NCBI GenBank assembly: GCA_003221005.1
Contig: QHTZ01000081.1
Span: 1 to 64,000 of the forward strand
Direction: 5' to 3'
Length of the DNA: 64,000 bases
Source: Gemmatimonadota bacterium
GTDB taxonomy: Bacteria; Gemmatimonadota; Gemmatimonadetes; Gemmatimonadales; GWC2-71-9
A program made the translations under genes and the position numbers. The notes below the pieces were generated by a model. The model was not told where the DNA came from. It saw only the letters and a program-made list of their open reading frames with translations, and ran no database searches. Below, piece by piece: positions 16,005-63,063 of this stretch (its first letter is position 1; the number at the start of each line of letters is the position of its first letter).

Positions 16005-16532
16005 TCAGGCCGCGACGCGGGCACCGCAGGCGTGGCAGTAGCGCGCTTCCACTTCGAGTGCCGAGCCGCAGCGGGCGCAGTAGCCGAGCGCTGCGGCCAA
16101 GCGGCGACCGCATTCCGAACAGAAGACCGCGTCGGATTCGGGGCGCGGGCCGTGGGTGGGACAGGCGGGATGCGAGATGCGAGATGCGAGATGCGGAGCT
16201 CCGCTGCGCGCAACCGTAGACGCATCCCGCATCTCGCCTCCCGCATCCCGCGTCTCGGCCCGCAGCGCCGCGAGCGCCTCCGCCGTGTACTTGCGGTGCA
16301 GCCCGTCGTAATCCGCGTCGGAGAGCTTACCGGTGGCGCGATCGAACTCGATCTCCCGGAGCGCGCGCAGGGCGACGGCGCGTGGGCTCAGATCGTCGTC
16401 CGGATCCTCGCCGTCCTCAACCCGTCCCGCGTCCCCCGTCCCCCGTCCCTCGACCGCCGGCCGGAATATCGGCTGCAGGACGAACCACACCGCCGCGGCG
16501 GCGAGCAGCACGCCGATGACGAGCTCGATCAC
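16005..16532 (-). CDS. CcmI-like N-terminus plus double zinc-ribbon protein (cytochrome c biogenesis cluster)
   Basis: TM helix, ALRALREIEFDRATGKLSDADY, C-terminal CxxH/CxxC pairs. Confidence 0.78.
   Translation of the reverse strand: MIELVIGVLLAAAAVWFVLQPIFRPAVEGRGTGDAGRVEDGEDPDDDLSPRAVALRALREIEFDRATGKLSDADYDGLHRKYTAEALAALRAETRDAGGEMRDASTVARSGAPHLASRISHPACPTHGPRPESDAVFCSECGRRLAAALGYCARCGSALEVEARYCHACGARVAA
16168..16255. repeat. Inverted 7-mer tandem-repeat pair (AGATGCG)n / (CGCATCY)n, in frame inside CDS
   Basis: GGATGCG AGATGCG x3 ... CGCATCC CGCATCT CGCCTCC CGCATCC CGCGTCT. Confidence 0.85.
16421..16452. repeat. Solo 7-mer arm (CCCGTCC)n inside CDS
   Basis: CCCGTCC CGCGTCC CCCGTCC CCCGTCC CTCG. 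Confidence 0.7.
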
Positions 16533-16539
16533 GGCACCG

Positions 16540-17124
16540 CTACTCTTGGAACTGCTCGAGCTCGTGCCGCAGCCGCTCGAGCTCCGCGGGCGACGCGTCG
16601 GGCGGGGGGGGCGGCGCCGGGATAGGCGCCGGCGCGCCGCGGGTCCAGCGGCGCAGCGCCAGCACCAGGAGCACTCCAGCGACGAGGATGACGAGCGAGG
16701 GCGTGAAGTAGCCCGCCAGGTTGAAGCCGCGCTTGGGCGGCGCCATCAGGATCGCGACGCCGCTCTCGCGCACGAATGCATCCAGGATCTCCTGCGCGCT
16801 CTTGCCCTGCTGCGCCAGCGTGACCACGTGCTGGTGCATCGCCGGGCTCGTCGTGCAGGTGAAGTCGGTCGTCCGGCAGGTGTAGACGTCCAGGCCGCAA
16901 CCGCAGGTGCAGTGGAGGCGTTTCTCGATCGCCTGAATCGCAGCGTCGTTATCGGCGGCTACGACGGGCTCGAGCGGGCGGCCGGCGCGAGACGGATCCC
17001 ACAGGCGGCCGGAGGGGCCGGAGCCGGGGAGGGAATCGACGGACTGTCGGACTGTCGGACTGAGGGACAGGACAGATGAAACCATGAGCCCGAAGAACTC
17101 GCGGCGCTTGCAGTCCGACGTCAC
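16540..17124 (-). CDS. ccmH: Cytochrome c biogenesis protein CcmH/CycL
   Basis: RLHCTCGC...C, GKSAQEILDAFV..G..ILMAPP..GFN, C-terminal TM; follows ccmF. Confidence 0.8.
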   Translation of the reverse strand: MTSDCKRREFFGLMVSSVLSLSPTVRQSVDSLPGSGPSGRLWDPSRAGRPLEPVVAADNDAAIQAIEKRLHCTCGCGLDVYTCRTTDFTCTTSPAMHQHVVTLAQQGKSAQEILDAFVRESGVAILMAPPKRGFNLAGYFTPSLVILVAGVLLVLALRRWTRGAPAPIPAPPPPPDASPAELERLRHELEQFQE

Positions 17125-21537: not shown

Positions 21538-21633
21538 AATGCGGAATTCGGAATGTGGAATGCGGAATGTCAGTGGAGGGTCGAACGGTTCGAGAAGCCT
21601 CCCCTGCAGTTCCGCATTCCGCATTTCGCATTC
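21538..21633. repeat. Inverted 7-mer tandem-repeat pair (AATGCGG)n / (TTCCGCA)n in divergent intergenic region
   Basis: AATGCGG AATTCGG AATGTGG AATGCGG AATGT ... TTCCGCA TTCCGCA TTTCGCA TTC. Confidence 0.85.
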
Positions 21634-35522: not shown

Positions 35523-36883
35523 GGCGCGGCACGCCGCGTGACGCTCACTCCCTCGAGCAGCACCGACGGCGTGTTGCGCGCGCCGTACCAGCGGCGGTCG
35601 CTCCCGAACCCGGCGATGCGCTGCAACAGGTCGTAGCTGTTGCCCGCGACGGCCGCGTCCTTCACGCGACCGACGATCTCACCGCGCCTGATGCGATACG
35701 CGAGCGCCACCGGATGGCTGAACGCCCCGCCGCTCACGTTCCCCTGCCCTACCCCGATGAGGTCGTCGACCAGAAGACCGTCGGCGATGTCGCCGAGCAA
35801 ACCGCCACCCAACTGTAGGGGCACGGCATGCCATGCCCCTACGGAATACCCGTCCCCCTTCCCCCGTCCCTCGTCCCCTATGATGAGGTTGGTATATCCG
35901 ACGACAGGCTTCGAAAAAATGGCGCGCTGCCCGTGCCCCGTGCTCATCGTCCCGGCACGGGCCGCGGTCTCGAGATCATAGATGAACCCCTGCACGACGC
36001 CACGTTGCACGAGGCACGTGGCGCGCGACGGCACGCACTCGTCGTCCACGGGCCGTGACGACGCTCTGCCGGGAGCGAGCGCGTCGTCCGTGAGCGAGAA
36101 CGCTGGATCGAACATCTGTTCGCCGACCTTCGCGGCGAGGGGCGAGATGCCCTGCAGCACGGCCTTGCCCGAGAGGGCCTGGGTGAGGGGCAGGAGCACC
36201 GCGGTAAGTCCGGCGGGCGTGAATATGACCGGGAGCGCGCCTTCGGGCGGGTCGGTGACCTTGAGGGCAAGATCGAGGCGCGTATTGACCGACTGTGCGA
36301 TGCGAGCGACGTCGGCCGCGCTCGGGAGATCGGCGCCCTCGAACGCGTCGCCGAGCACGAGCACGTCGTCGCCCGCGACGCGCCACAGGTCGGCGCTCAC
36401 CACGACGCCGGTCGATTGGTAGCTCGAGTCGGCGCCGGCCGAGTTCGCCACCCGCGTCTCGGCCAGCTCGCGCTCGACGCTGACGTTGACCTGGCACCCA
36501 TCGCGCGCGAGCTGTGCGACGAGCCCGGCCCCGAGCTCGATGAGGGCATCGAGCGACGCGCCGGCTGCCGCAGCGAAGAACGTAGGGACGTGGGGGAGCG
36601 GGGTGCGCGACGGAAACGCGAGCGTCAGCTCCGCGCCCAGCTCGGCCGAGGCGAGCGCGCGGCTCACCAACTCGTCAGGCGCGGCAGCGACGGCGGTCGA
36701 GCCCGCCACGCCGACCCGCCCGCCGCTCACGACCCGCAGGTTGACGCCCGCCTCTTCCGTCACCCCCGCGGCCTTTAGGCGGCCGAATTCGAACGCGACG
36801 GACGTCCGCTCCGACCGGCGCCACAGGGCGTCCGCGGTGCCCGCCCCGCGGCGCCGCGCCTGCTCGAGCAGCCGCTCGATCAC
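35519..36883 (-). CDS. pmbA: PmbA/TldE family protein
   Basis: DDECVP, STGHG, GAFS, GEIVGRVKDAAVAGN; lacks HExxxH; follows tldD. Confidence 0.85.
   Translation of the reverse strand: MIERLLEQARRRGAGTADALWRRSERTSVAFEFGRLKAAGVTEEAGVNLRVVSGGRVGVAGSTAVAAAPDELVSRALASAELGAELTLAFPSRTPLPHVPTFFAAAAGASLDALIELGAGLVAQLARDGCQVNVSVERELAETRVANSAGADSSYQSTGVVVSADLWRVAGDDVLVLGDAFEGADLPSAADVARIAQSVNTRLDLALKVTDPPEGALPVIFTPAGLTAVLLPLTQALSGKAVLQGISPLAAKVGEQMFDPAFSLTDDALAPGRASSRPVDDECVPSRATCLVQRGVVQGFIYDLETAARAGTMSTGHGQRAIFSKPVVGYTNLIIGDEGRGKGDGYSVGAWHAVPLQLGGGLLGDIADGLLVDDLIGVGQGNVSGGAFSHPVALAYRIRRGEIVGRVKDAAVAGNSYDLLQRIAGFGSDRRWYGARNTPSVLLEGVSVTRRAAP
35815..35878. repeat. GTAG-type REP palindrome plus solo 7-mer arm, in frame within pmbA
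   Basis: GTAGGGGCACGGCATGCCATGCCCCTAC (35815-35842), then CCCGTCC CCCTTCC CCCGTCC CTCGTCC (35849-35876). Confidence 0.75.
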
Positions 36884-42447: not shown

Positions 42448-43071
42448 CTAGCTCTTCTCCCCCGCCCACAACCCCTGCCCCGCCGCGAGCTGCCGGATCC
42501 CGGGCGGCGGCACGACATCCTCCCGCTCGACCACGAACCGCCGTCCTCTGAGCAGCACGCGCTGGCCTTCCTCGAACCACGGCGGAGCCGCCACGTCCGC
42601 CCCCAGGACGACGCCGCGCGCCATCGCCGGACGCAGCGGAATCACTCCCGCCGCGCGCACCAGGCTGAGCACCGGCAATTCCTCCGCATCGCTCGGCGCA
42701 TTCACGCCGATGAAGTGAACCCCACCCCTCAGTCCCGCTAGGCCCACCGCGTGCCGCACTCCGTCACCCACGAGCACGATGAAGCCGCCGGGGCCGGAGA
42801 GATCGAGGAGGGCCTGGAGGGTCTGTGCGTCATCGGGACGAAGGACGGGGGACGGGGGACGGGTGGCGGCGGGGCCACGTCCCACGTCCCTCGTCCCCCG
42901 TCCCGTGAAATCGACGACCCCGTGCACAATCGGATACTCCCGCTTGCAAATGGGACATCCCACGATCCCCGAGCGTACCATCCGTCCGAGCATCTCGCCC
43001 GTCGACAACACGAGGACGCCGAGCTCGTGCGGCTCGGGGCAGCGCAGCATCTCCGTCAACTCGATGTGCAT
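42448..43071 (-). CDS. Trm112-like zinc-ribbon plus degenerate methyltransferase-like domain
   Basis: LRCP...GCPICKREYPI..GV, followed by a Rossmann-like region. Confidence 0.6.
   Translation of the reverse strand: MHIELTEMLRCPEPHELGVLVLSTGEMLGRMVRSGIVGCPICKREYPIVHGVVDFTGRGTRDVGRGPAATRPPSPVLRPDDAQTLQALLDLSGPGGFIVLVGDGVRHAVGLAGLRGGVHFIGVNAPSDAEELPVLSLVRAAGVIPLRPAMARGVVLGADVAAPPWFEEGQRVLLRGRRFVVEREDVVPPPGIRQLAAGQGLWAGEKS
42835..42905. repeat. Inverted 7-mer tandem-repeat pair (GGGACGG)n / (CCCGTCC)n, in frame inside CDS
   Basis: GGGACGA AGGACGG GGGACGG GGGACGG ... CCACGTC CCACGTC CCTCGTC CCCCGTC. Confidence 0.85.
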
Positions 43072-46428: not shown

Positions 46429-48482
46429 TGGAGGCTACTCCCATGATCGCCTGCCGCCGGTTCCTGCTCGCCAGCGCGCTCGTGGCCGTCGCCACAGCTG
46501 CGCCTGTCGCCGCCCAGCGCGGCGTGAATCGGGCCTACCTCGACACGAGCTGCGCGCCTTGCAGCGATTTCTTCGGGTTCGCGAACGGCGCTTGGGTCAA
46601 GACCGCGACCATCCCGGCCGCGTACGCGAGCACCGGGGCCGCCCGCGAGCTGTACGACCGCAACCAGGAGACGCTGCGCAAGGTGCTCGAGCGTGCCGCG
46701 GCGGCCGCTGACACGACGCACGACGCCACGCTCAAGAAGCTCGGCGCCTTCTACGGGAGTTGCATGGACTCCGTAGCCGCCGAGCGGGCGGGGGCGGCGC
46801 CGATCGCCGACGAGCTGCGCCGTATCGACGCGATCCGCACCGTGCGCGACCTGCAAGACGCAATCGTCCGCTTCAACCGGCTTCAGATCTTCGCGCCATT
46901 CTCTTTCTCGGCAGAGGCCGATCCCAAGGAGAGCTCGCACAACATCGGACAGCTGTACCAGGCCGGGCTCGGGCTCCCCGACCGGGACTACTACCTGAAG
47001 ACCGACGCCGCCTCGGACTCGCTACGCCAGAAGTACGTGGCCCACGTGGCGCGCACGCTCGCCCTGCTCGGCACGCCGTCCTCCCAGGCTGAGCAGGACG
47101 CCCAGCGCGCGATGCGCTTCGAGACTGCGCTCGCCGAGTCATCGATGACGCTCGTCGCCCAGCGCGATCCCAACGCCATCTACCACAAGATGACGGTGCG
47201 GGAGCTACAAGCCCTCGCTCCCGCCCTCGACTGGCCGGCTTTGTTTGGCGGGCTGGGGGTGCCGCTGGCCGATCCCGCGGCCGCGCTCGACGTCTCGCAG
47301 CCCGCATTCCTCCGGCTGGTGAGCGCCATGGTCCAGAGCACGCTCCTCGCCGACTGGCGGGTCTATCTGCGCTGGCAGCTTGCGGGCGCCACGGCGCCGA
47401 CGCTCAGCAGCGGGTTCTTCAATGAGGACTTCCAGTTCCAGACGGTGCTGCGGGGCGTCAAGGAGCCGCTACCCCGCTGGAAGCGGTGCGCGGCGGCGGC
47501 GGACGACGCGTTGGGGGAGGCGCTGGGCAAGGCCTACGTGGCGAGCGAGTTCTCGCCCGCGGCGAAGGCTCACGTCGTCGAGATCGTCGACAATCTCAAG
47601 GAGGCCCTGGCCGCGCGCATCCGGCAGCTCGACTGGATGAGCGACTCAACCAAGGCTCACGCCTTCGCCAAGCTCGACGCGATCGTCAAGAAGATCGGGT
47701 ACCCGGACCACTGGCGGGACTACTCGGCGCTCGAGGCCCGAGGGGTGTGGCCCTACGCCGCGAACGTGCTGCAGGCGCGCGAGTTCGAGCAGCGGCGCCA
47801 GCTCGCGAAGGTCGGCCGTGCGGTGGACAAGACCGAGTGGGGGATGACGCCGCCTACCGTGAATGCCTACTACAACCCGTCGTTCAACGAGATCGTGTTC
47901 CCTGCCGGGATCCTCCAGCCGCCGTATTTCGACCCAGCGGCCGACGATGCGGTCAACTACGGGGCGATCGGGGCGGTGATCGGCCACGAGCTCACGCATG
48001 GCTTCGACGACCAGGGGCGCCAATTCGACGCCCAGGGCAACCTGCGCGACTGGTGGACCGCGGAAGACGCCCGGCGGTTCACGGAGCGGGCGCAGCGGGT
48101 CGTGGCGCAGTTCAACGGCTACGTCGCGGTCGACACGTTCCACGTGAACGGGCAGCTCACGCTGGGCGAAAACATCGCCGACCTGGGCGGGCTCACCATC
48201 GCCTACTACGCCTTCGAGCAGTCGCTCGCAGGCAAGCCGCGCCCTCGCGACATCGACGGCTTCACACCGGAGCAGCGCCTTTTCCTTGCCTTCGCGCAGG
48301 GTTGGCGCAACCGCACGCGGCCGGAGACCCTGCGGCTCCGCACCCTCACCGACCCGCACTCGCCGCCGCACGGGCGCGTGAACGGGCCCACGTCGAACAT
48401 GCCGGAGTTCGCCCGCGCCTTCGGGTGCAAGGCCGGAGACGCCATGCTCCGGCCCGACAGCGTCCGCGCGGAGGTGTGGTAG
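46428..48482 (+). CDS. M13 family (neprilysin/PepO) metallopeptidase
   Basis: DFFGFANG.W, VNAYY, FPAGILQPP, HELTHGFD, GENIADLGG, DPHSP. Confidence 0.95.
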   Translation: MEATPMIACRRFLLASALVAVATAAPVAAQRGVNRAYLDTSCAPCSDFFGFANGAWVKTATIPAAYASTGAARELYDRNQETLRKVLERAAAAADTTHDATLKKLGAFYGSCMDSVAAERAGAAPIADELRRIDAIRTVRDLQDAIVRFNRLQIFAPFSFSAEADPKESSHNIGQLYQAGLGLPDRDYYLKTDAASDSLRQKYVAHVARTLALLGTPSSQAEQDAQRAMRFETALAESSMTLVAQRDPNAIYHKMTVRELQALAPALDWPALFGGLGVPLADPAAALDVSQPAFLRLVSAMVQSTLLADWRVYLRWQLAGATAPTLSSGFFNEDFQFQTVLRGVKEPLPRWKRCAAAADDALGEALGKAYVASEFSPAAKAHVVEIVDNLKEALAARIRQLDWMSDSTKAHAFAKLDAIVKKIGYPDHWRDYSALEARGVWPYAANVLQAREFEQRRQLAKVGRAVDKTEWGMTPPTVNAYYNPSFNEIVFPAGILQPPYFDPAADDAVNYGAIGAVIGHELTHGFDDQGRQFDAQGNLRDWWTAEDARRFTERAQRVVAQFNGYVAVDTFHVNGQLTLGENIADLGGLTIAYYAFEQSLAGKPRPRDIDGFTPEQRLFLAFAQGWRNRTRPETLRLRTLTDPHSPPHGRVNGPTSNMPEFARAFGCKAGDAMLRPDSVRAEVW

Positions 48483-48520
48483 GGGGGACGAGGGAGGTGG
48501 GACGGGGGACGGGTAAGACA

Positions 48521-55832: not shown

Positions 55833-57791
55833 TCAGTATGGTTCGTCCGACAGCGGGTTGAGGGGCGGCACCGCCTCGCGCGCGCGTCCGGCGGGCTCGG
55901 CCGCCGCGACCCGCGCCCCTAGCGCCCGCCGGAAGAACGCGAGCGGGTCTTCGGGCCGGGCGCGCCGTGTCGCGGCGAGCGCGCGGCGCACGTCATCCGG
56001 CGCGCGGTCGACGATGAGGTCGTGCACCGCGTTCGGCCGGATCCTGCGGTCGAGCCTGAGGAGCTGGCGCACGACCGCGTCGGCGAACGGCAGATCGGCA
56101 GCGGGTGGGAACCGCTCGACGCCGTCCCGCCCGCGCAGCACCGCGGGCCGCGGGAACCGCACGAAGATCGGTTGCGTGAAATGCGGGTGGCGCACCATCA
56201 GCTCGCCGATGGGCAGGGTGGCGAGCTTGATCTTGGTGGCGGGCGAGAGCACCTGGTAGCCGGGCGTGGCCAGCTCGTCGTAGTCCATACGCCCGTAGAC
56301 GATCGTGCCGGCGTTCCCCACCACTCGCCGATGTACCTGCGAGCGGAACTGCTCGGCGCCGAAGAGCACGAGCCCAAGGTAACGCCCGCGCTCCGAGATA
56401 TCGAGCAGCATCTTGCGGACGTACGTGTCCGGCCCGTCGGCCGGCGCGTACTTGTTGAGCTCGTCCACGAACACCACGACGGCCTCGACGCCGAGATCGC
56501 GCCGCTCGAGGTGCTCGCGCAGCTGCGACACGACGCGCGCAAACACGAGGTCCTGGCCAAGCGGATCCACGTTCGCCAGATCGACCACGTACACGGCCCG
56601 GTCCTCGAACGCGCCCCACGGCAGGTCGTTCGAGGGGCCGTCGTCGGTGACGAGCCCCTTGCAACGGGTCGAGATGTTGGAGAGCCGGTTCCGGACCTTG
56701 CGCATCGTCGCGATGTGATGAGTGCGCCACATGTCGCTGCGGCCTGCCAGCTCGAGCCCGTCGAAGATGGCGCGGAACAGCGCATCCAGGTCTGCGAACG
56801 TCTGGACCCGATGGGTGCCGCCGAAGCCATCGTCGAACTCCCGGTTGAGCACCCGGTCGGCGAGGAAGTCGATGAATGCGTCGGCCTTGGCGTCGATGTC
56901 GTCGCGGTTCAGGAGCACTTCGGCGAAGTCGAGCACCTCCTGGAGGCCCCACACGAGGGGCTCGACGGCGCCCACGAGGTCGGGATGGGTGCGCAGCGTA
57001 TTGAGGTTCACGCCGTCCGCCTTGAAGGGCGCGTAGTAGCGCACCCGGCGGAACGGCTGCGGCGCGACCCCGAGCCGCTCGTAGCGGCGGCGGTCCGCGT
57101 CGTCGAGGCTCCCCGGCTGGTCGAGGAAGCAGAGGTCGGGACCCTTCACGTTGAAGCACACGGCGGCAATCCGTCCCTTGTGCGCCGGGAAGTGCTGGAA
57201 GATGGACGACAACAGGAACTCGACGGCGCTCGTCTTGGTCGCGAGTCCAGAGACGCCCGAGATGTTGAGGTGAGCCGCTTCAGGACCGTGCAGGAAGTCC
57301 GCGTCCAGGTAGACCGGCGCCTCGAGCCCTCCCGAGGTGTACAGCCCCACCGGGATGGCGGTGGGGGTGGCGCCCTGGAGGTAGGTCTCCATGCGGAGGG
57401 CGCGGGCCACGTCAGGGTCGGTCGCCACGAACACGCGGCCGAGCGGGACCGGCTGCAGCGGCTCCTCGGGCTCCTGGCGCAGCACGGCCGCGGTCCACAG
57501 CCGAATCTCCTGGCGCACCGTGGGGCTGTCAGCTGCGCGAGCGGGATCTCCGTCGGCGCCGACCACGTCGTGCAGTGGGGTGGCAAGGTCGGAGTAGGCG
57601 AACCCATCCGTCACAACCCCGAAGACCACCCTTCCCTCTTCCCCCGTCCCACTTCCCTCGACCCTGACAATCGCCCCGATCCCGATCGCCGTCTCGGTAG
57701 CGGTCCAGAAGTGGAATTGGTGCGGCGTCGCCGGCTTGAGCTCGGTGGCGACCACCCGGCCGACCGGCTCCGGCGCCCGTTTCTGGATCAC
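55833..57791 (-). CDS. herA: HerA-like ATPase
   Basis: N-terminal barrel, AHLNISGVSGLATKTS, FNVKG.DL, VFVDELNKYAP, ERGRYLG...AEQ. Confidence 0.8.
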   Translation of the reverse strand: MIQKRAPEPVGRVVATELKPATPHQFHFWTATETAIGIGAIVRVEGSGTGEEGRVVFGVVTDGFAYSDLATPLHDVVGADGDPARAADSPTVRQEIRLWTAAVLRQEPEEPLQPVPLGRVFVATDPDVARALRMETYLQGATPTAIPVGLYTSGGLEAPVYLDADFLHGPEAAHLNISGVSGLATKTSAVEFLLSSIFQHFPAHKGRIAAVCFNVKGPDLCFLDQPGSLDDADRRRYERLGVAPQPFRRVRYYAPFKADGVNLNTLRTHPDLVGAVEPLVWGLQEVLDFAEVLLNRDDIDAKADAFIDFLADRVLNREFDDGFGGTHRVQTFADLDALFRAIFDGLELAGRSDMWRTHHIATMRKVRNRLSNISTRCKGLVTDDGPSNDLPWGAFEDRAVYVVDLANVDPLGQDLVFARVVSQLREHLERRDLGVEAVVVFVDELNKYAPADGPDTYVRKMLLDISERGRYLGLVLFGAEQFRSQVHRRVVGNAGTIVYGRMDYDELATPGYQVLSPATKIKLATLPIGELMVRHPHFTQPIFVRFPRPAVLRGRDGVERFPPAADLPFADAVVRQLLRLDRRIRPNAVHDLIVDRAPDDVRRALAATRRARPEDPLAFFRRALGARVAAAEPAGRAREAVPPLNPLSDEPY

Positions 57792-58774
57792 GAAGCCGCT
57801 TTGGGGAGGCGGGAGGCGGGGGACGGGAGCAGGTCCCGCGGGGCGCGCGCTCTCAGATACGTCTCCACGTCATGAATGGGATAAAGTAATCGATCCCACC
57901 GCGCATCGGGGGTCGAGACCGGCGCGCGCTCGCGCGCGAGCCAGCCGCTCACGCCCGACGCCGCCGTGACCGTTGCGGGATGGGCGCGCGCCTCGACCCG
58001 CAGCAGGCCGAACAACAGGTCGTTCCCCTCCCACGGCCACAGCCGCAGGTACCACGAGTAAACCTCGTGGTGCGCCCGACCCCGCGGGCGGAACACCGAG
58101 GTGCGATGCAGCGCCGGAAGCGTGAGGGCGCGCGTGAGGGCGTCGCCCTCGAAGTACTGCGCGCCGTGGCTCTTGATCACGCCGAGCGCGCGCGGATGCC
58201 CGGCGAGGCGGGCGGACTCGGAGAGCACACCGTCCACGACGAACCACTCTTCGGCGCCGAGCGACGCGAGGTGCCGCTCCGCCAGGTCCTTCTCGAGCGC
58301 GACGCGGGCGTTCTCGACGGCGCGCCGTGCTGCCTCGAGCGCCGGCCCAGGCTGGCCCAGGGCCTCCTGAGGCACGTCCACCAGGTCCACGCCGCTCGCC
58401 TCGAGCGCCGCGCGCACGCCGGGACGCAGCGCGGCCACGGCTGCCGCGTGAAACTCCCGCGTCGTCTCCCCGACGACGCGCAGCCGGCGGTCTCCAGTCC
58501 GGCGTCGCACGGCGGACGCCACGTACGCCCGCACGATGGGCACGGCGCCGTCGTAGTAGGTGACCTTCCAGCGCTGGATACCGTCGAGGAAAGAGGCTGT
58601 CGCGGGGGGGGCAATGACGCCGCCGGGATCGAGTGGGTGGATCCGGACCTCCGTGTCCTCGACCAGCTCGGCCCCGGCGACCTCGCTGAGCTCGGTACGC
58701 CCCAGGCTCTCCTCCGGGACGTGCGACGCCCGCACGGCCCCTGCCGCCACGATCGCGTCCGCCCAGCTGCGCAT
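57788..58774 (-). CDS. nurA: NurA-like nuclease
   Basis: FLDG, VVDG, GVIKSH, YSWYLRL, R...LYPI..VE..LR; coupled to herA. Confidence 0.72.
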   Translation of the reverse strand: MRSWADAIVAAGAVRASHVPEESLGRTELSEVAGAELVEDTEVRIHPLDPGGVIAPPATASFLDGIQRWKVTYYDGAVPIVRAYVASAVRRRTGDRRLRVVGETTREFHAAAVAALRPGVRAALEASGVDLVDVPQEALGQPGPALEAARRAVENARVALEKDLAERHLASLGAEEWFVVDGVLSESARLAGHPRALGVIKSHGAQYFEGDALTRALTLPALHRTSVFRPRGRAHHEVYSWYLRLWPWEGNDLLFGLLRVEARAHPATVTAASGVSGWLARERAPVSTPDARWDRLLYPIHDVETYLRARAPRDLLPSPASRLPKAAS

Positions 58775-60091: not shown

Positions 60092-61266
60092 ATGCAACGG
60101 CGGGAGTTCGTCTCGGTGGCTGGGGCCCTGGTCCTGGCGGCGACGGAAGGACGGAAGGACGGAAGGGGGTGGCGGGGACGTTCCGTCCTTCCGTCGTTCC
60201 GTCCTTCCGTCGCCTCTCAGGAACCAGCCCTCTCGCCCGAAGTCTTCTCCCGCCGCCTCGCGCGCGCGCAGGCGGAGCTCAAGACCCGCAAGTGGGACTT
60301 CCTCATCGCCACGCCAGGCACGACCTACCTCTATTTCACCGGCTACAACCCGGGCCGGAGCGAGCGGCTCATCGCGCTCGTCATCCCCGCGAGCGGCGAG
60401 CCCGCGATCGTGTGCCCGTCGTTCGAGGTGGACCGCATCAAGCGCCATGCGACGGCGCTCGACATCACGGGGTGGGAGGAGCCGGCGAATCCCTATAAGC
60501 TGGTCGAGCGCGTGGTCCGCGCGCGCAAGCCCCGGGCTCCCGGGACGATCGCGCTCGAGTCCTCGACCGCGTTCGGATCGTATCTGGGCATCAAGGACGC
60601 GCTTGGGGGCTGGAAGTTTGAAGATGCCGCCGCCATCACCGACCGGCTGCGGATCATCAAGTTTCCCGAGGAGATCGCGCTGATCCGCCGCGCGATCGCG
60701 ATCACCGAGGACGCGATGGCGGCCACCTTCGCGCAGCTCGCCGTGGGCGTAAGCGAGCACGACGTGGCGGGGGTGCTCGAGCGGGAGATGGAGCGGCGCG
60801 GCGGAGAGGGGGGCGGCGGGCTGGTGCAGTTCGGGCCGTCGAGCGCCCTGCCGCACGGCGGCCCCGCGAGCGTCACGCTCGAGCGCGAGATGGTGGTGCT
60901 GATCGATTGCGGCTGTCGCGTCTCGGGCTATACGTCCGACATCACGCGCACGATCTGGTTCGGCGACCATTGGGCCGGCCCCTCGTCACCCCATGTGAGG
61001 AAATGGATCGCGCCGCGCGCAAGGTGATCAGCGACGCCGGCTTCGGCCGTAACTTCACCCACCGCCTCGGCCACGGAATCGGCCTCGACGGCCACGAGCC
61101 GCCGTATCTCGTCGAAGGAAACGAGGTCCACCTCGAGCCAGGGATGGTGTTCACGCTCGAGCCAGGGGTGTACCAAACTGGGAAATTCGGAGTGCGGATC
61201 GAGGATGACTGTCTGATGACGGAGAACGGAGTTGAGGTCCTGAGTCACCGACCGTCCAAACTCTGA
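60092..61266 (+). pseudogene. Tat-exported Xaa-Pro peptidase (M24), split by deletion/frameshift near 60969
   Basis: MQRREF Tat signal; PHG, DCG, SDITRT in one frame; THRLGHGIGLDGHE, EPG, RIEDD in another. Confidence 0.8.
60142..60212. repeat. Inverted 8-mer tandem-repeat pair (GACGGAAG)3 / (TTCCGTCS)4, in frame in CDS
   Basis: Read directly; lies just after the Tat signal. Confidence 0.85.
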
Positions 61267-61631
61267 CGGGGACGAGGGACGCGGGACGGGGGACGCGTGG
61301 TGCCGAGGCGGCGGCGTAGGCTATAGATGAGGCCGATCAACAGCCCCACGACCTGATTGCTGAGTACCAGCGCCTCGTCCACCGATTTCGCGGGCGCAAG
61401 TTCTAGGTCTCGCACCAATTCGAGATGCGTGCAAAGCTCCGTACCGGAACCGAGGGCAATCCCGAGCGCGTAGCCTTCAGCGATGTTCGCAGGAATCGCC
61501 GCCGCCGCTCGCCGGATCTGATCCGCGAGTCCATAATGGCGACTGAGAGGTGGCTCGAGCGTGAGGCGATAGGCGACGCGCGCGACGGCGCGACCGCGCG
61601 TCCACGCCTGCAAAGAATCGAGCTTTCGCAC
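61245..61631 (-). CDS. Four-helix-bundle protein (23S rRNA IVP / Avd-like, TIGR02436 type)
   Basis: L.AW, YGLADQIRRAAAAIPANIAEG, IALGS..EL; about 10 residues apparently missing after NIAEGYALG. Confidence 0.85.
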   Translation of the reverse strand: MRKLDSLQAWTRGRAVARVAYRLTLEPPLSRHYGLADQIRRAAAAIPANIAEGYALGIALGSGTELCTHLELVRDLELAPAKSVDEALVLSNQVVGLLIGLIYSLRRRLGTTRPPSRVPRPRQSLDGR

Positions 61632-61732
61632 GAATAGAAGTTGGAATGCCGCCTGCCATGGTAGGAGTCATTCCGCCGCATCCATGGTCCTTTCGCCGCA
61701 ACACTCGTCCCCCGTCCCTCGTCCCCCGCCCC
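61268..61732. mobile_element. Putative element: inverted 7-mer arms bracketing the four-helix-bundle gene
   Basis: (NGGGACG)4 at 61268-61295 and (CNCGTCC)-type x4 at 61704-61731, each abutting the stop codon of a flanking convergent gene. Confidence 0.55.
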
Positions 61733-62919
61733 TAGTCTCCTAGCTTCTTCGCAAACCCCACGATCTTCTCCAGCGCCCGCTCGATGTCCCCCGTCGCCGC
61801 CGCGTAAGACAATCGCACGTAGCGATCGTCGCCGAACGCCGAGCCGGGGACCAGCGCCACCCCCGACTCGGTAATGAGACGGGTGCAGAACTCCGTGCCG
61901 CTCGAGCCCCCGAGCGAGTCTACGCGGAAGAAAAAGTAGAACGCGCCCAGCGGATCCACGAACTCCACGCCTGGCAAATCGCGGCGGAAGCGGCCGACCA
62001 CGAGGTCGCGCCGCTTGCGGAACTCCGCTACCATCCGCATCACGTCCTGCTCCACCCGCTCATCGCCCAGGGCGGCGGCCGCGGCGAACTGCGCCGGGTG
62101 ATTCGCCCCGGTGGTGGTATGTGACTGCAGCGCAGCCATGGCCTTGGCGATCTTGCCCGGCGCGAGCGCGATGCCGATGCGCCACCCCGTCATCGCATAC
62201 GCCTTACTGACCCCGTAGATCACGACGACGCGCTCGAGCAGCTCGTCCGGAAGATCGAGGAACGACGGGGCCGGTCCCGGACCGTAATGGATGCGCCGGT
62301 AAATCTCGTCGGTGATCACCCACACCTTGCGCTCCACCGCCCACTGCGCGATCGCCTTGATCTCGGCGTGCGTGTAGACGCCGCCGGTCGGATTGCAGGG
62401 CGAGCACAGGATCAACCCCTGGGCCCCGGGCACCACGCGCTCGAGATCGCGCACCCCCACCTTGAGACTCCACTCCGGATCGCCGGGCACGAGCACGGGC
62501 CGCGCGCGCGTGAGGTGCACGATCTGGGGATACGACACCCAGGCAGGAGCAGGGATCGCCACCACGTCCCCCGGGCCGAACAGACTGAAGCAGACGTTGA
62601 ACAGCGACTGCTTCGAGCCGTTGGAGATGACGACGTGATCGGCGTTCACGGGCCGCCCGCCTGAGAGCAGCGAGAGATGCTTCGCCGCCGCGGCACGGAG
62701 CTCGAGGATCCCCTCGTTCGCCGGGTAGTGGGTCTTCCCCTCCCGAATCGCCCGCACGCCGGCGTCGGCGGGAATCGACGGGGTGGGGAAATCCGGCTCG
62801 CCCGCCCCGAGGTCGATCACATCCTCTCCCGCGGCGCGACGCCGCTTCGCCTCCTGGGAGATGGCGATCGTGGCGGATGTCTCGAGATGCTGAAGGTTGG
62901 GCGACAGCCCCTGCGACAT
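61732..62919 (-). CDS. aspC: PLP-dependent class I aminotransferase (aspartate aminotransferase type)
   Basis: GEPDF, W.SY, PCNPTG, DEIY, SKAYAMTGWRIG, PG.AFG, RLSYA. Confidence 0.9.
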   Translation of the reverse strand: MSQGLSPNLQHLETSATIAISQEAKRRRAAGEDVIDLGAGEPDFPTPSIPADAGVRAIREGKTHYPANEGILELRAAAAKHLSLLSGGRPVNADHVVISNGSKQSLFNVCFSLFGPGDVVAIPAPAWVSYPQIVHLTRARPVLVPGDPEWSLKVGVRDLERVVPGAQGLILCSPCNPTGGVYTHAEIKAIAQWAVERKVWVITDEIYRRIHYGPGPAPSFLDLPDELLERVVVIYGVSKAYAMTGWRIGIALAPGKIAKAMAALQSHTTTGANHPAQFAAAAALGDERVEQDVMRMVAEFRKRRDLVVGRFRRDLPGVEFVDPLGAFYFFFRVDSLGGSSGTEFCTRLITESGVALVPGSAFGDDRYVRLSYAAATGDIERALEKIVGFAKKLGD

Positions 62920-63063
62920 GAGCGACGTGCTCCGTGGCGGACGATGGCAATATCCGCTCGCGCGGTCGCGACGCGCAACTAGTCGCGAGGTTGCCTTTCG
63001 CGCGCCCGCGCGGTAGCATCCCGCCACGAGCGGTACGTCGCCCTTTGACAACTCGAGGATCGT

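Follow-up and report, generated by a model that had tools for sequence, protein, structure and literature searches.

In the window, the 64,000-nucleotide stretch of Gemmatimonadales DNA analysed here, a gene of the PF05635/TIGR02436 (23S rRNA IVP) family lies at the junction of a peptidase gene and aspC, bracketed by inverted arrays of a 7-nt repeat. The features of the junction are:

60092-61266, plus strand: left neighbour, an M24 (Xaa-Pro type) peptidase, in two frames, 60092-61027 and 60907-61266 (ORFs, HMM)
61245-61631, minus strand: cargo gene, PF05635/TIGR02436 four-helix bundle (23S rRNA IVP), 128 aa, GTG start (ORF and HMM match)
61268-61303, no strand: arm A, G-rich, GGGGACG AGGGACG CGGGACG GGGGACG plus a non-repeat inner end, CGTGGTGC
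61632-61703, minus strand: leader from arm B to the start codon, 72 nt, overlapping the inner end of arm B, which starts at 61698 (read from the sequence)
61698-61732, no strand: arm B, C-rich, the reverse complement of arm A, with inner end GCAACA, then CTCGTCC CCCGTCC CTCGTCC CCCGCCC
61732-62940, minus strand: right neighbour, aspC, a class I/II aminotransferase of the aspartate aminotransferase type (ORF, HMM)

An inverted-repeat search of the window pairs the two arms as 35 nt each (61269-61303 and 61698-61732), 86% complementary and 394 nt apart. TRF reports period-7 arrays of 4.0 copies at 61268-61295 (GGGGACG) and at 61706-61732 (CGTCCCC). The peptidase stop codon, TGA, occupies 61264-61266, so arm A begins 2 nt later; the aspC stop is at 61732-61734, so arm B ends on it, its final base being the first base of that codon. 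Thus, the inverted period-7 arms described in the initial annotation do adjoin both stops, and the inverted-array bracket around the IVP gene at 61268-61732 is confirmed. The same annotation placed only a gene and a leader of about 70 nt between the arms. This stands for the content, one PF05635/TIGR02436 gene and its leader with no other gene, but not for the left border: the first stop in the cargo ORF comes at 61245, which places the codons of its C-terminal tail in arm A and gives the ORF a 22-nt overlap with the peptidase 3' end. An upstream in-frame ATG in the leader, at 61685, is dead, being followed by an in-frame TGA. aspC is convergent with the peptidase gene and co-directional with the cargo gene. 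The apparent frameshift in the peptidase gene matches breaks of independent contigs at 60966/60971. No Rfam family was found at the locus, and two metatranscriptome runs (Logan contigs) cover only its aspC part, 61761-62183.

PF05635/TIGR02436 is a very common "function unknown" family, with members dispersed among operons, cas loci, and rRNA genes. The window protein matches PF05635 with an E value of 3.2e-17 and 63.1 bits (cut-off 33.8) over profile positions 2-105 of 106, and TIGR02436 with an E value of 8.3e-17 and 61.4 bits (cut-off 24). A profile search of the cargo protein found no nuclease, transposase, or polymerase domain, in agreement with the earlier statement that it carries no transposase. 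At the family motif, quoted as RxxxSxxxNxxE in the accessible text of PMC3936711, the window protein reads RRAAAAIPANIAEG; the R, N, and E are kept and the S is replaced by A. Relative to its paralogs and orthologs, the window copy also has an in-frame deletion of 10 residues (30 nt) after AEGYA, and given this deletion it may be decaying.

The arm-gene-arm unit at other loci

All six PF05635 genes of this genome are bracketed by arms, built from six different repeat units. A wider search, using a three-member IVP alignment as the query, retrieved 80 loci, which therefore stand for one IVP subfamily. A flanking inverted match with a score of at least 17 is present at 65 of 75 related loci in Gemmatimonadota (69 of 75 at a score of at least 14), while control windows displaced by 1 kb give 0/138 at a score of at least 14, with a maximum of 13. 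This is the enrichment of inverted short-period arrays that had been predicted for other members of the family. Arms were also found at 30 of 32 further loci from 41 relatives (31 distinct loci; this scoring had no control of its own), and at 15 of 17 plasmid loci from Cyanobacteriota, Gemmatimonadota, Pseudomonadota, and Bacteroidota (score of at least 14) versus 0/340 shuffles. The repeat unit differs from one IVP gene to the next, and the two arms therefore vary together. The arm-gene-arm architecture is common to essentially every IVP gene examined, in four phyla.

Comparison of the peptidase-aspC junction among relatives reveals two states. Genomes G000, G003, and G017 contain both arms and gene, and the GGGGACG-type unit is shared by the window copy and those of G003 and G017. 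Genomes G001, G015, and G020 (unpublished) contain neither, their two stop codons lying 0-11 nt apart; these are the empty sites that the initial annotation had proposed to look for. Among the relatives compared, none has the gene at this junction without arms, a finding that would have counted against that annotation. In the aspC tree, the empty G001 is sister to the occupied G003 (92/92). The whole unit has been gained or lost as one piece at a conserved gene junction.

The cassette also occurs at unrelated loci. Two elements from different genomes, L049 and L052, share 82-93% identity over their whole length, outer arms included, in flanks that cannot be aligned, which supports the earlier proposal that arm-gene-arm is a mobile unit. 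A second pair, L052 and L063, has flanks that are 95-99% identical and elements that are only about 75% identical; judged from these identities, the element appears to have been exchanged as an allele by homologous recombination and not by transposition. A consistent target-site duplication was not seen at element borders. The sequence CTAG is enriched 6.5-fold near the borders (1.39 versus 0.21 per kb), being present per side at 21 of 72 loci and on both sides within 260 nt at 7 of 72, and the G003 element has CTAG on both sides where the empty G015 site reads CTAG. A CTAG target-site duplication was nevertheless set aside, because it is absent from most loci and the enrichment is due in part to neighbouring stop codons. 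In DNA runs, the joints 61290>61706, 61290>61709, and 61295>61704 have sides of only 22-27 letters and most likely come from other GGGGACG hairpins; they are therefore not counted as excision.

Cargo-free hairpins and their distribution

Besides its six loaded copies, the genome contains about 88 short-loop hairpins without cargo, 13 of which belong to the GGGGACG family; most of the 88 belong to unit families for which this 94%-complete assembly has no loaded copy. Their loops are mostly 4-100 nt long and hold no recognisable gene remnant. By eye, an inner-end signature, GGGTGG...CCACCC, is present in most of the 13 GGGGACG hairpins and in the loaded copies of G003 and G017, and is less exact in the window copy. 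Five cargo-free hairpins of the window, none assigned to a strand, are:

622-693: CAGACGT arrays; the G001 ortholog has CAGGTGT arrays and a partly conserved loop
16165-16251: GCGAGAT arrays; at this site, a G-rich array only in G001 and none in G004
21538-21633: AATGCGG arrays; at this site, GGTGTCA arms in G001 and GGGAGTG arms in G003
42835-42904: GGGACGG ... CCGTCCC with an 11-nt loop, of the arm unit family of the IVP locus; the unit is conserved in G001 and G003
60139-60214: GACGGAAG x3 / CTTCCGTC x3, in frame within the peptidase ORF after a Tat-like signal; at this site, GGCGGGAA arms in G001 and GGAACGCG arms in G003

The units of orthologous cargo-free hairpins drift in concert. In 85 of the 88 hairpins the 5' arm is the purine-rich one whichever strand is read, and the structure is thus independent of any one transcript. 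One idea is that G-rich strands running to the centre from both sides would reflect templated 3' extension of a break. Candidates for other cargo in loops of 200-1300 nt turned out to be ordinary genes flanked by two independent hairpins, or a stretch that, from its translation, may be a tRNA gene.

Across genomes, an IVP gene is accompanied by its own dispersed repeat family. GGGACG arrays number 108 in G000, 106 in G017, 58 in G003, and 50 in G001, with no more than 6 in each of 37 other genomes, and orthologs of the window IVP (at least 77% identity) are restricted to G000, G003, and G017. Likewise, GGGATT arrays number 72 in G016, whose IVP gene has GGGATT arms, and no more than 8 elsewhere. 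Six genomes without IVP genes have 0 hairpins in 497 kb, and nine with IVP genes have 24 in 640 kb (13 in 519 kb when two samples chosen for synteny are excluded). Because related genomes are not independent, all of these co-occurrence counts overstate the support. The exceptions are G001 (assembly 83% complete), which has its 50 GGGACG matches without a close ortholog, its best IVP match being 39% identical, and G031, which has 8 IVP genes yet 0 hairpins in the 100 kb sampled. GGGAAG was considered as a third cognate test; G014, which has no IVP gene, yields 51 matches to this loose pattern versus 17 for the reversed control, and the test was dropped as too loose, since the reversed control gives 83 matches in G017 and the pattern overlaps the GGGACG family. 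Together, the shared unit families and the genome-by-genome co-occurrence agree with the earlier view that the empty hairpins are related to the loaded ones.

Y1 (RAYT-like) transposases, another possible driver of the hairpins, are encoded by 17 of 41 relatives, this genome included. The two Y1 genes of this genome are flanked by palindromes of their own, which are different and non-tandem. Genomes G005, G026, and G029 have arrays or hairpins together with IVP genes and no Y1 gene, and G012 has a Y1 gene, no IVP gene, and no hairpin in 63 kb. RAYT was rejected as the driver, because the Y1 genes have their own REPs and the Y1 distribution fits the hairpins worse than the IVP distribution does.

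A two-part reading and its rivals

On balance, we lean towards the reading that the window locus is a "loaded" member of a hairpin repeat family, an IVS-type selfish cassette within a two-part system that resembles REPIN/RAYT. The unit consists of a G-rich tandem array of about 30 nt, a short leader, the PF05635 (IVP) gene, and the complementary C-rich array. The IVP protein would be a trans-acting factor for the repeated arms of its own family, which it might bind as hairpin, single strand, or G-quadruplex, and such binding could promote copying, insertion, or retention of the arms. On this view the loaded copy would sustain the empty hairpins, much as a RAYT does its REPINs. The long 5'-3' stem, predicted also for a read-through transcript, most likely isolates or controls the cassette mRNA. 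RNase III is the enzyme that excises rRNA IVSs. Searches for its domains (PF00636, PF14622) gave no match in this 94%-complete genome, and among 41 relatives a match, to PF14622, was present in one only. Therefore, stem action on the cassette mRNA cannot run through RNase III in this lineage, and a model of excision by RNase III was rejected because this genome lacks a detectable domain. Retro-element movement or telomerase-like addition by a reverse transcriptase was also rejected, since RVT_1 has no match anywhere in the genome.

In an alternative reading, which we consider unlikely, the hairpins are primary and have spread by slippage, host repair, or another transposase; the IVP genes would be selfish or useful lodgers in the loops, or would simply survive best there, and would be inert on the arms. 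The excess of about 88 hairpins over 6 loaded copies, most of them in families without a loaded copy, is what this reading expects, as are the persistence of arrays in G001 without a cognate IVP gene and the concerted drift of units at orthologous hairpins without cargo. The presence of Y1 transposases in 17 of 41 relatives, including this genome, would supply a mover, and the available portions of PMC4679880 and PMC4692102 describe heptamer repeats as widely over-represented in bacteria and propose slippage as the cause. However, none of the three empty orthologous sites (3/3) has a hairpin into which a gene could have lodged. Moreover, IVP is the only protein cargo in loops of 300-500 nt in this genome, the IVP-less genomes have 0 hairpins in 497 kb, and Y1 genes are poor candidates for the mover, given the separate palindromes of the two in this genome and the distributions seen in G005, G026, G029, and G012.

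Less likely again is that mobility is confined to the loaded cassette, which would travel by horizontal transfer and recombination or along some host route, and that the empty hairpins are non-multiplying leftovers of gene deletion; the protein would have a cellular or defence role unrelated to the arms. Such a history explains why hairpins and IVP genes occur together and why the inner-end signature is shared, and the window copy could be an internal in-frame deletion in progress. The resemblance of L052/L063 to allele replacement also fits. In addition, IVP genes lie inside cas operons among the cyanobacterial loci examined, a location also given in the accessible part of PMC3936711. Nonetheless, for GGGGACG alone this history needs at least 13 independent insertions followed by internal deletions in a 2.8-Mb genome, with one loaded copy surviving; the empty loops, mostly 4-100 nt, contain no recognisable remnant of a gene; and some hairpins are in frame within a coding region, where a 450-nt cassette would be disruptive.

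Several observations concern the RNA. The initial annotation had suggested that the transcript could fold into a stem that loops out the gene, and the arms do form the terminal stem in the predicted MFE and centroid folds (z = -3.5). Mismatches between arms lean to G.U in the sense strand, 143 versus 104 (p = 0.015), an excess that is weak and comes from related, non-independent loci. At the cyanobacterial loci, a purine-rich unit beside the start codon resembles a ribosome-binding site. Runs of G are also frequent in the hairpins: 15 of 88 5' arms have at least four G3 runs (shuffle mean 4.2), and 55 of 88 have at least four G2 runs (shuffle mean 38). The paired arms, the G.U excess, the purine-rich unit, and the G3 runs would all suit a purely cis-regulatory role, in which the arms, pairing over a long range as a 5'-3' RNA stem or acting as a G-quadruplex/hairpin switch, set the stability, processing, or translation of an ordinary host gene, absence is gene loss, and the other hairpins are unrelated terminators; this is improbable, as it leaves unexplained the same cassette in unrelated flanks, the clean joint loss of arms and gene, the bursts of one unit family in particular genomes, the lack of hairpins where IVP genes are missing, and insertions that fall in rRNA genes or midway through cas operons, and is at odds with the 5' position of the purine-rich arm on both strands in 85 of 88 hairpins.

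Relation to known systems

How rRNA intervening sequences arose and how they move has been a question for more than 30 years, and heptamer tandem repeats, among them the cyanobacterial STRR and the G4 repeats, have lacked an explanation since they became known in 1990. Avd is the four-helix-bundle, nucleic-acid-binding accessory protein of diversity-generating retroelements; the cargo protein is similar to it in belonging to a homologous four-helix-bundle family, and a link between PF05635 and Avd is reportedly mentioned in one paper. Unlike a diversity-generating retroelement, the locus has no template/variable repeat pair, and no reverse transcriptase gene was found in its genome; its neighbours are a peptidase and an aminotransferase, and its arms are short tandem arrays. 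The unit shares with MITEs and other TIR transposons its terminal inverted repeats, a presence/absence polymorphism, and short non-coding derivatives, but it encodes no transposase, its inverted repeats are entirely different from one element to the next, and no consistent target-site duplication was found.

The likeness to the intervening sequences of 23S rRNA (Leptospira, Coxiella), which carry an S23p/IVP ORF, is closer in architecture. In both, terminal inverted repeats form a long stem around an IVP ORF (35-nt arms here), the distribution is sporadic, and one IVP copy of this genome lies directly after the 23S-5S genes. According to the available text of PMC4990558, a terminal stem of 28 bp and an S23p ORF are present in the Coxiella IVS, and its 5' arm contains tandem heptamers (GACAGAT) in a copy number that varies between strains. 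In contrast to the rRNA elements, the window element lies between two protein-coding genes rather than in a 23S or 16S rRNA helix, its arms are wholly tandem arrays, and many cargo-free hairpins accompany it; rRNA IVSs are excised by RNase III, which was not found here or in 40 of 41 relatives.

As the accessible text of PMC3116915 describes them, REPIN/RAYT systems consist of a low-copy gene flanked by its own hairpin repeats plus dispersed non-autonomous copies, with a separate repeat family for each gene lineage and co-occurrence of gene and repeats by genome, all of which is seen here. The differences lie in the protein, a four-helix bundle of about 120 aa with PF05635 only instead of a Y1/HUH transposase, and in the repeats, tandem arrays of 7-10-nt units instead of single palindromes; RAYT-like genes with REPs of their own are separate in this genome.

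The arrays most like the arms are the heptamers of Xanthomonas and Nostoc (GGGAATC, GGGGAYT). In the portion of PMC4692102 available, G-rich heptamer arrays form convergent pairs that abound in Xanthomonas and are also reported from Nostoc; the arrays have about 3-5 tandem G-rich units, often in convergent stem-loop pairs and mostly intergenic, with a conserved position and a length that varies between relatives, and are capable of forming G4. The same features are found here, and arm A has four tandem heptamers, each with a run of three or four G residues, as in G4-forming heptamer repeats. That portion of the paper makes no link to IVP and reports the heptamers without an associated gene or mobile element, unlike the arrays here, which bracket IVP genes and follow IVP lineages. 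In a literature search of freely accessible main texts, no paper was found to connect flanking tandem-repeat arrays or G4/STRR heptamers with IVP genes outside rRNA.

The counts given here tie together the IVP family, the heptamer repeats, and the rRNA IVSs, under the proposal that the protein acts on its own arms. By analogy, the ORF-bearing IVS of 23S rRNA would be only the rRNA-lodged special case of the cassette. More tentatively, and with some doubt, PF05635 proteins could be trans-acting partners of short-tandem-repeat hairpins throughout bacteria, each lineage recognising its own arms and driving their spread or maintenance without HUH, DDE, or reverse-transcriptase activity of its own; rRNA IVSs, cyanobacterial STRR, and the Xanthomonas/Nostoc G-quadruplex repeats would be one system, and the many "four helix bundle protein" genes found within operons, such as cas loci and rRNA operons, would represent autonomous copies of that system. 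If the arms are indeed acted on by the protein, this would be a mobile-element type with a new kind of protein, and would account for a widespread class of structured repeats with a part in the make-up of intergenic regions and even of coding linkers; if PF05635 is the trans-acting hairpin partner, it would define a new class of mobile repeat system. A paralog of the cargo protein in this family, C132, matches by sequence (E 1.5e-18) the protein of PDB entry 2GSC, XCC0516 of Xanthomonas campestris.

The IVP cassette and its relatives

The genome that contains the window (contig C118) is assembled as 2.79 Mb in 141 contigs, with 69% G+C and an estimated completeness of 94%; its close relatives in the public record are all Gemmatimonadales or Gemmatimonadota MAGs. 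Near the end of the window, a gene for an IVP, the four-helix-bundle protein first found in 23S rRNA intervening sequences (IVS), lies between inverted arrays:

61264-61266, + strand: TGA stop of the M24 peptidase ORF (sequence reading)
from 61268, read on the + strand: arm A, GGGGACG AGGGACG CGGGACG GGGGACG (sequence reading)
61245..61631, - strand: IVP ORF, GTG start, 128 aa, the sole ORF between the arms
61705-61732, read on the + strand: arm B, CTCGTCC CCCGTCC CTCGTCC CCCGCCC (sequence reading)
61732..62940, - strand: aminotransferase gene (aspC); the first base of its stop codon is the last C of arm B

This arm-gene-arm architecture, described in the initial annotation, was confirmed. An inverted-repeat search returned arms at 61269-61303 and 61698-61732 (35 nt, 86% complementary, 394 nt apart), TRF resolved both as period-7 arrays of 4.0 copies each, and the ORF matched PF05635 (E 3.2e-17) and TIGR02436 (E 8.3e-17). 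The sense-strand RNA is predicted to fold with the arms paired as its terminal stem, in the MFE and centroid structures alike (-235 kcal/mol; z = -3.5 relative to 100 shuffles). RNA contigs aligned here reach part of aspC (61761-62183) and no part of the IVP gene. A 72-nt leader precedes the ORF, and an in-frame ATG within it, at 61685, meets a TGA five codons on; at its other end the ORF reads across arm A and then 22 nt of the peptidase gene before its stop. Missing from the protein after AEGYA are 10 residues that five paralogs and two orthologs have. The corresponding 30-nt in-frame deletion (window 61455-61470; GTTPQFMRFLR, roughly the residues lost, is present in the ortholog of G017, a relative from another genus) falls where helices 2 and 3 meet and recurs, with identical sequence, in independent contigs of two DNA runs. 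Judged from this deletion, the window copy may be decaying. The neighboring peptidase is split into two frames by an apparent frameshift at 60960-60975, where independent Logan contigs break or have loose ends (60966/60971); the probable cause is a join in the assembly or a difference between strains, not a pseudogene.

Bracketing arms are a general trait of IVP genes. All six PF05635 genes of the genome are bracketed by inverted arrays, with six distinct units: TAGACGC; GGCGGTAAGG; a GGCGGTC-based composite; GGGGACG; AATGTCC; and GGAACGCG. The other proteins share just 22-36% identity with the window copy, indicating old lineages within each of which the arms have co-varied. A scan for related loci, with one genome per species and a three-member alignment, gave 80 loci, all from Gemmatimonadota, of which 75 had enough flank for scoring. 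Each was scored by its highest ungapped inverted match pairing the 265 nt upstream with the 280 nt downstream. The score was at least 17 in 65 of the 75 and at least 14 in 69, compared with 0 of 138 control windows displaced by 1 kb (maximum 13). Arms were also found at 30 of 32 further loci (31 distinct; best matches, all IVP subfamilies) from 41 relatives, a set scored slightly differently and without control windows. A tblastn search of PLSDB matched 29 plasmids, from which 17 loci were taken (14 cyanobacterial, plus Gemmatirosa, Azospirillum, and Riemerella); 15 of these scored at least 14 versus none of 340 shuffles (maximum 12), and their units are all distinct (GGTGACA, GGGAAAA, AGGGTGT, TCAGGAG, GGGAACA, GGGCAGGA, AAGGTTY, and others). 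The expected enrichment of flanking inverted arrays in other family members is borne out in the genome itself, in its phylum, and on plasmids.

The settings of these cassettes vary. Cyanobacterial copies, which lie on the operon strand, separate cas6 from cas4 or cas10 from cmr3. In one cas6-IVP-cas4 locus, on a Pseudanabaena galeata plasmid (L139), very long direct arrays flank the gene on one strand (upstream, some 15 copies of AAAGCTA; downstream, some 10 of AAAGCCA), and an additional inverted partner lies further upstream. One cassette of the window's own genome lies directly behind 23S-5S rRNA genes; there (contig C39, positions 1-1722) the 23S 3' end and 5S are followed by an AATGTCC hairpin, the IVP gene on the opposite strand, and more AATGTCC arms.

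Presence, absence, and apparent exchange of the unit

Alignment of the peptidase-aspC junction, which is kept in six genomes among the 41 relatives, revealed both occupied and empty sites. In G003 (same genus) and G017, the junction holds the IVP gene and arms with the GGGGACG unit, which directly adjoin the two stops; relative to the G017 protein, those of G003 and the window are 77-78% identical. Neither arms nor gene is present in G001 (same genus), G015, or G020, where the stops are separated by 9, 0, and 11 nt, respectively, the G020 site resting on an unpublished genome. The aspC tree joins the empty G001 and the occupied G003 as sisters (92/92) and places G017 outside the genus. Consequently, there has been at least one clean loss of the unit, or else repeated entry at one site.

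Two loci from different MAGs, L049 and L052, are 82-93% identical from outer arm end to outer arm end, while their flanks cannot be aligned. Together with the presence or absence of the whole unit at the junction, these similar elements in unrelated flanks support the proposal that arm-gene-arm is a mobile unit. L052 and L063, from two Gemmatimonadales MAGs, have flanks that are 95-99% identical, with only 75-80% identity across the element and roughly 150 nt to either side, and an unalignable leader. This sharp local peak of divergence, centered on the element, looks from the alignment like allele replacement. No consistent target-site duplication was found at the element borders. CTAG is generally scarce in these genomes (0.21 per kb in the loci), but up to 260 nt from the gene its density is 1.39 per kb, a 6.5-fold enrichment (72 loci); most of the 72 lack it. 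In G003 (locus L012), CTAG flanks the element on both sides, and the empty site of G015 reads TTCTAGTCC.

Empty hairpins and their distribution

Paired arms without a gene are abundant. Requiring arms of at least 20 nt, at least 80% complementary, each with a self-match of at least 0.7 at period 6-10, we counted 88 hairpins in the genome whose loops span 0-150 nt. Their commonest period is 7, a typical arm measures some 28 nt (3-4 units), and about a dozen unit families are represented. In 85 of the 88, the arm on the 5' side is the purine-rich one. Since a hairpin reads alike on both strands, this bias is a genuine asymmetry and not an effect of orientation. Thirteen belong to the GGGGACG family, and most of these have, by eye, the inner non-repeat end GGGTGG...CCACCC in common with loaded copies, a likeness that is clearest with those of G003 and G017 and looser with the window's.

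Genome by genome, arrays and hairpins track the IVP genes. GGGACG arrays (three units, at most one mismatch) number 108 in the window's genome (G000), 106 in G017, 58 in G003, and 50 in G001, and at most six in each of 37 other genomes, four of the same genus among them; orthologs of the window IVP (at least 77% identity) occur only in the first three, the best match in G001 being 39%. Similarly, GGGATT arrays number 72 in G016 and at most eight elsewhere, and the IVP of G016, which has GGGATT arms, is the closest to the window type outside the orthologs (59% identity). In the six of 41 genomes that lack PF05635, no hairpins were found in 497 kb sampled (mostly contigs C1-C5), compared with 24 in 640 kb of nine IVP-bearing genomes, 13 in 519 kb of these after removal of two picked for window synteny, and 84 in the 2.79 Mb of the window's genome. 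Because related genomes are not independent, all of these array and hairpin counts overstate the support. There are exceptions: G031 has eight IVP genes yet no hairpins in 100 kb, G001 has GGGACG arrays without an ortholog of the window IVP, and G014, without an IVP, has 51 matches to a loose GGGAAG pattern. The co-occurrence, the 13 GGGGACG-family hairpins, and the common inner ends support the claim that empty hairpins are related to loaded ones.

Congeneric genomes retain hairpins at orthologous sites, with differing units. One pair has CAGACGT versus CAGGTGT arrays with a partly conserved loop, and another site has GACGGAAG, GGCGGGAA, and GGAACGCG in different genomes. Some of these units are 1-2 substitutions apart, indicating that arrays and arms evolve in concert. 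Within the peptidase ORF itself, an in-frame tandem-array hairpin (window 60139-60214) separates a Tat-like signal (MQRREFV...) from the mature domain; it is present in the window's genome, G001, and G003, where three units give three linker peptides.

Four or more G3 runs are found in 15 of the 88 5' arms (shuffles: mean 4.2, maximum 10) and four or more G2 runs in 55 (shuffle mean 38). G-quadruplex potential is therefore enriched, yet not general; with such G runs, many 5' arms could form a G-quadruplex in place of the hairpin.

Single arrays without a close partner arm also occur in the window (16421-16449, 17036-17068, 35849-35878, 48470-48513, 57629-57659, and 57804-57829). They belong to the same unit families as the hairpins, some lie inside long ORFs, and several are shared with G001 and G003 and missing in the IVP-less G004. 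Elsewhere in the genome (C38:42484-42987 and C68:13013-13255), arrays of the TAGACGGG and GGCGGATA types border stretches that, judged by their translation, may be tRNA genes.

Known systems and candidate mechanisms

The IVS described for Coxiella is 428 nt long, has a terminal stem of 28 bp, contains an S23p ORF, and carries GACAGAT heptamers, two or three in tandem, in its 5' arm; an old idea quoted there is that the ORF serves mobility (PMC4990558). The window element is likewise best read as an IVS-type cassette, but one outside rRNA, and as part of a two-part repeat system. In Xanthomonas, Rehm et al. count roughly 180 GGGAATC arrays, with 70-75 arranged as convergent pairs; they also describe GGGGAYT arrays in Nostoc and demonstrate G4 formation. 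Their passages on heptamer arrays give neither an associated gene nor a link to mobile elements (PMC4692102). IVP genes have been noted in cas loci and CPR rRNA insertions, in passages that do not mention flanking arrays (PMC3936711; 10.1101/2024.02.27.582315). A literature search, with supplements and subscription journals outside its scope, found no paper joining IVP genes, IVS, and heptamer arrays. There is a realistic chance that the element marks a new class of mobile system.

Overall, the observation in the initial annotation was confirmed and its interpretation supported. The best reading, which we hold with moderate confidence, is that of a selfish IVS-type cassette whose protein would act upon arms of its own repeat family, an activity that we infer, with the empty hairpins as putative non-autonomous members of the system. 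Another candidate driver, the Y1 (RAYT-like) transposases, occurs in 17 of the 41 relatives and twice in the window's genome (C27:17898-18239 and C66:6398-6736). Both of these genes have REP palindromes of their own on either side, non-tandem and unlike the tandem-array hairpins, and the distribution of the hairpins is matched less well by Y1 genes than by IVP genes; this candidate was rejected. Classical excision of IVS by RNase III cannot apply in this lineage, given that neither PF00636 nor PF14622 was found in the window's genome (94% complete) and PF14622 is present in a single genome among 41 Gemmatimonadales, many of which reach 98-100% completeness. A search of the window's genome for a reverse transcriptase found none. 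Arm mismatches lean weakly toward G.U in the sense RNA (143 vs 104). The Y1 gene on C66 lies 2.2 kb from an IVP cassette.
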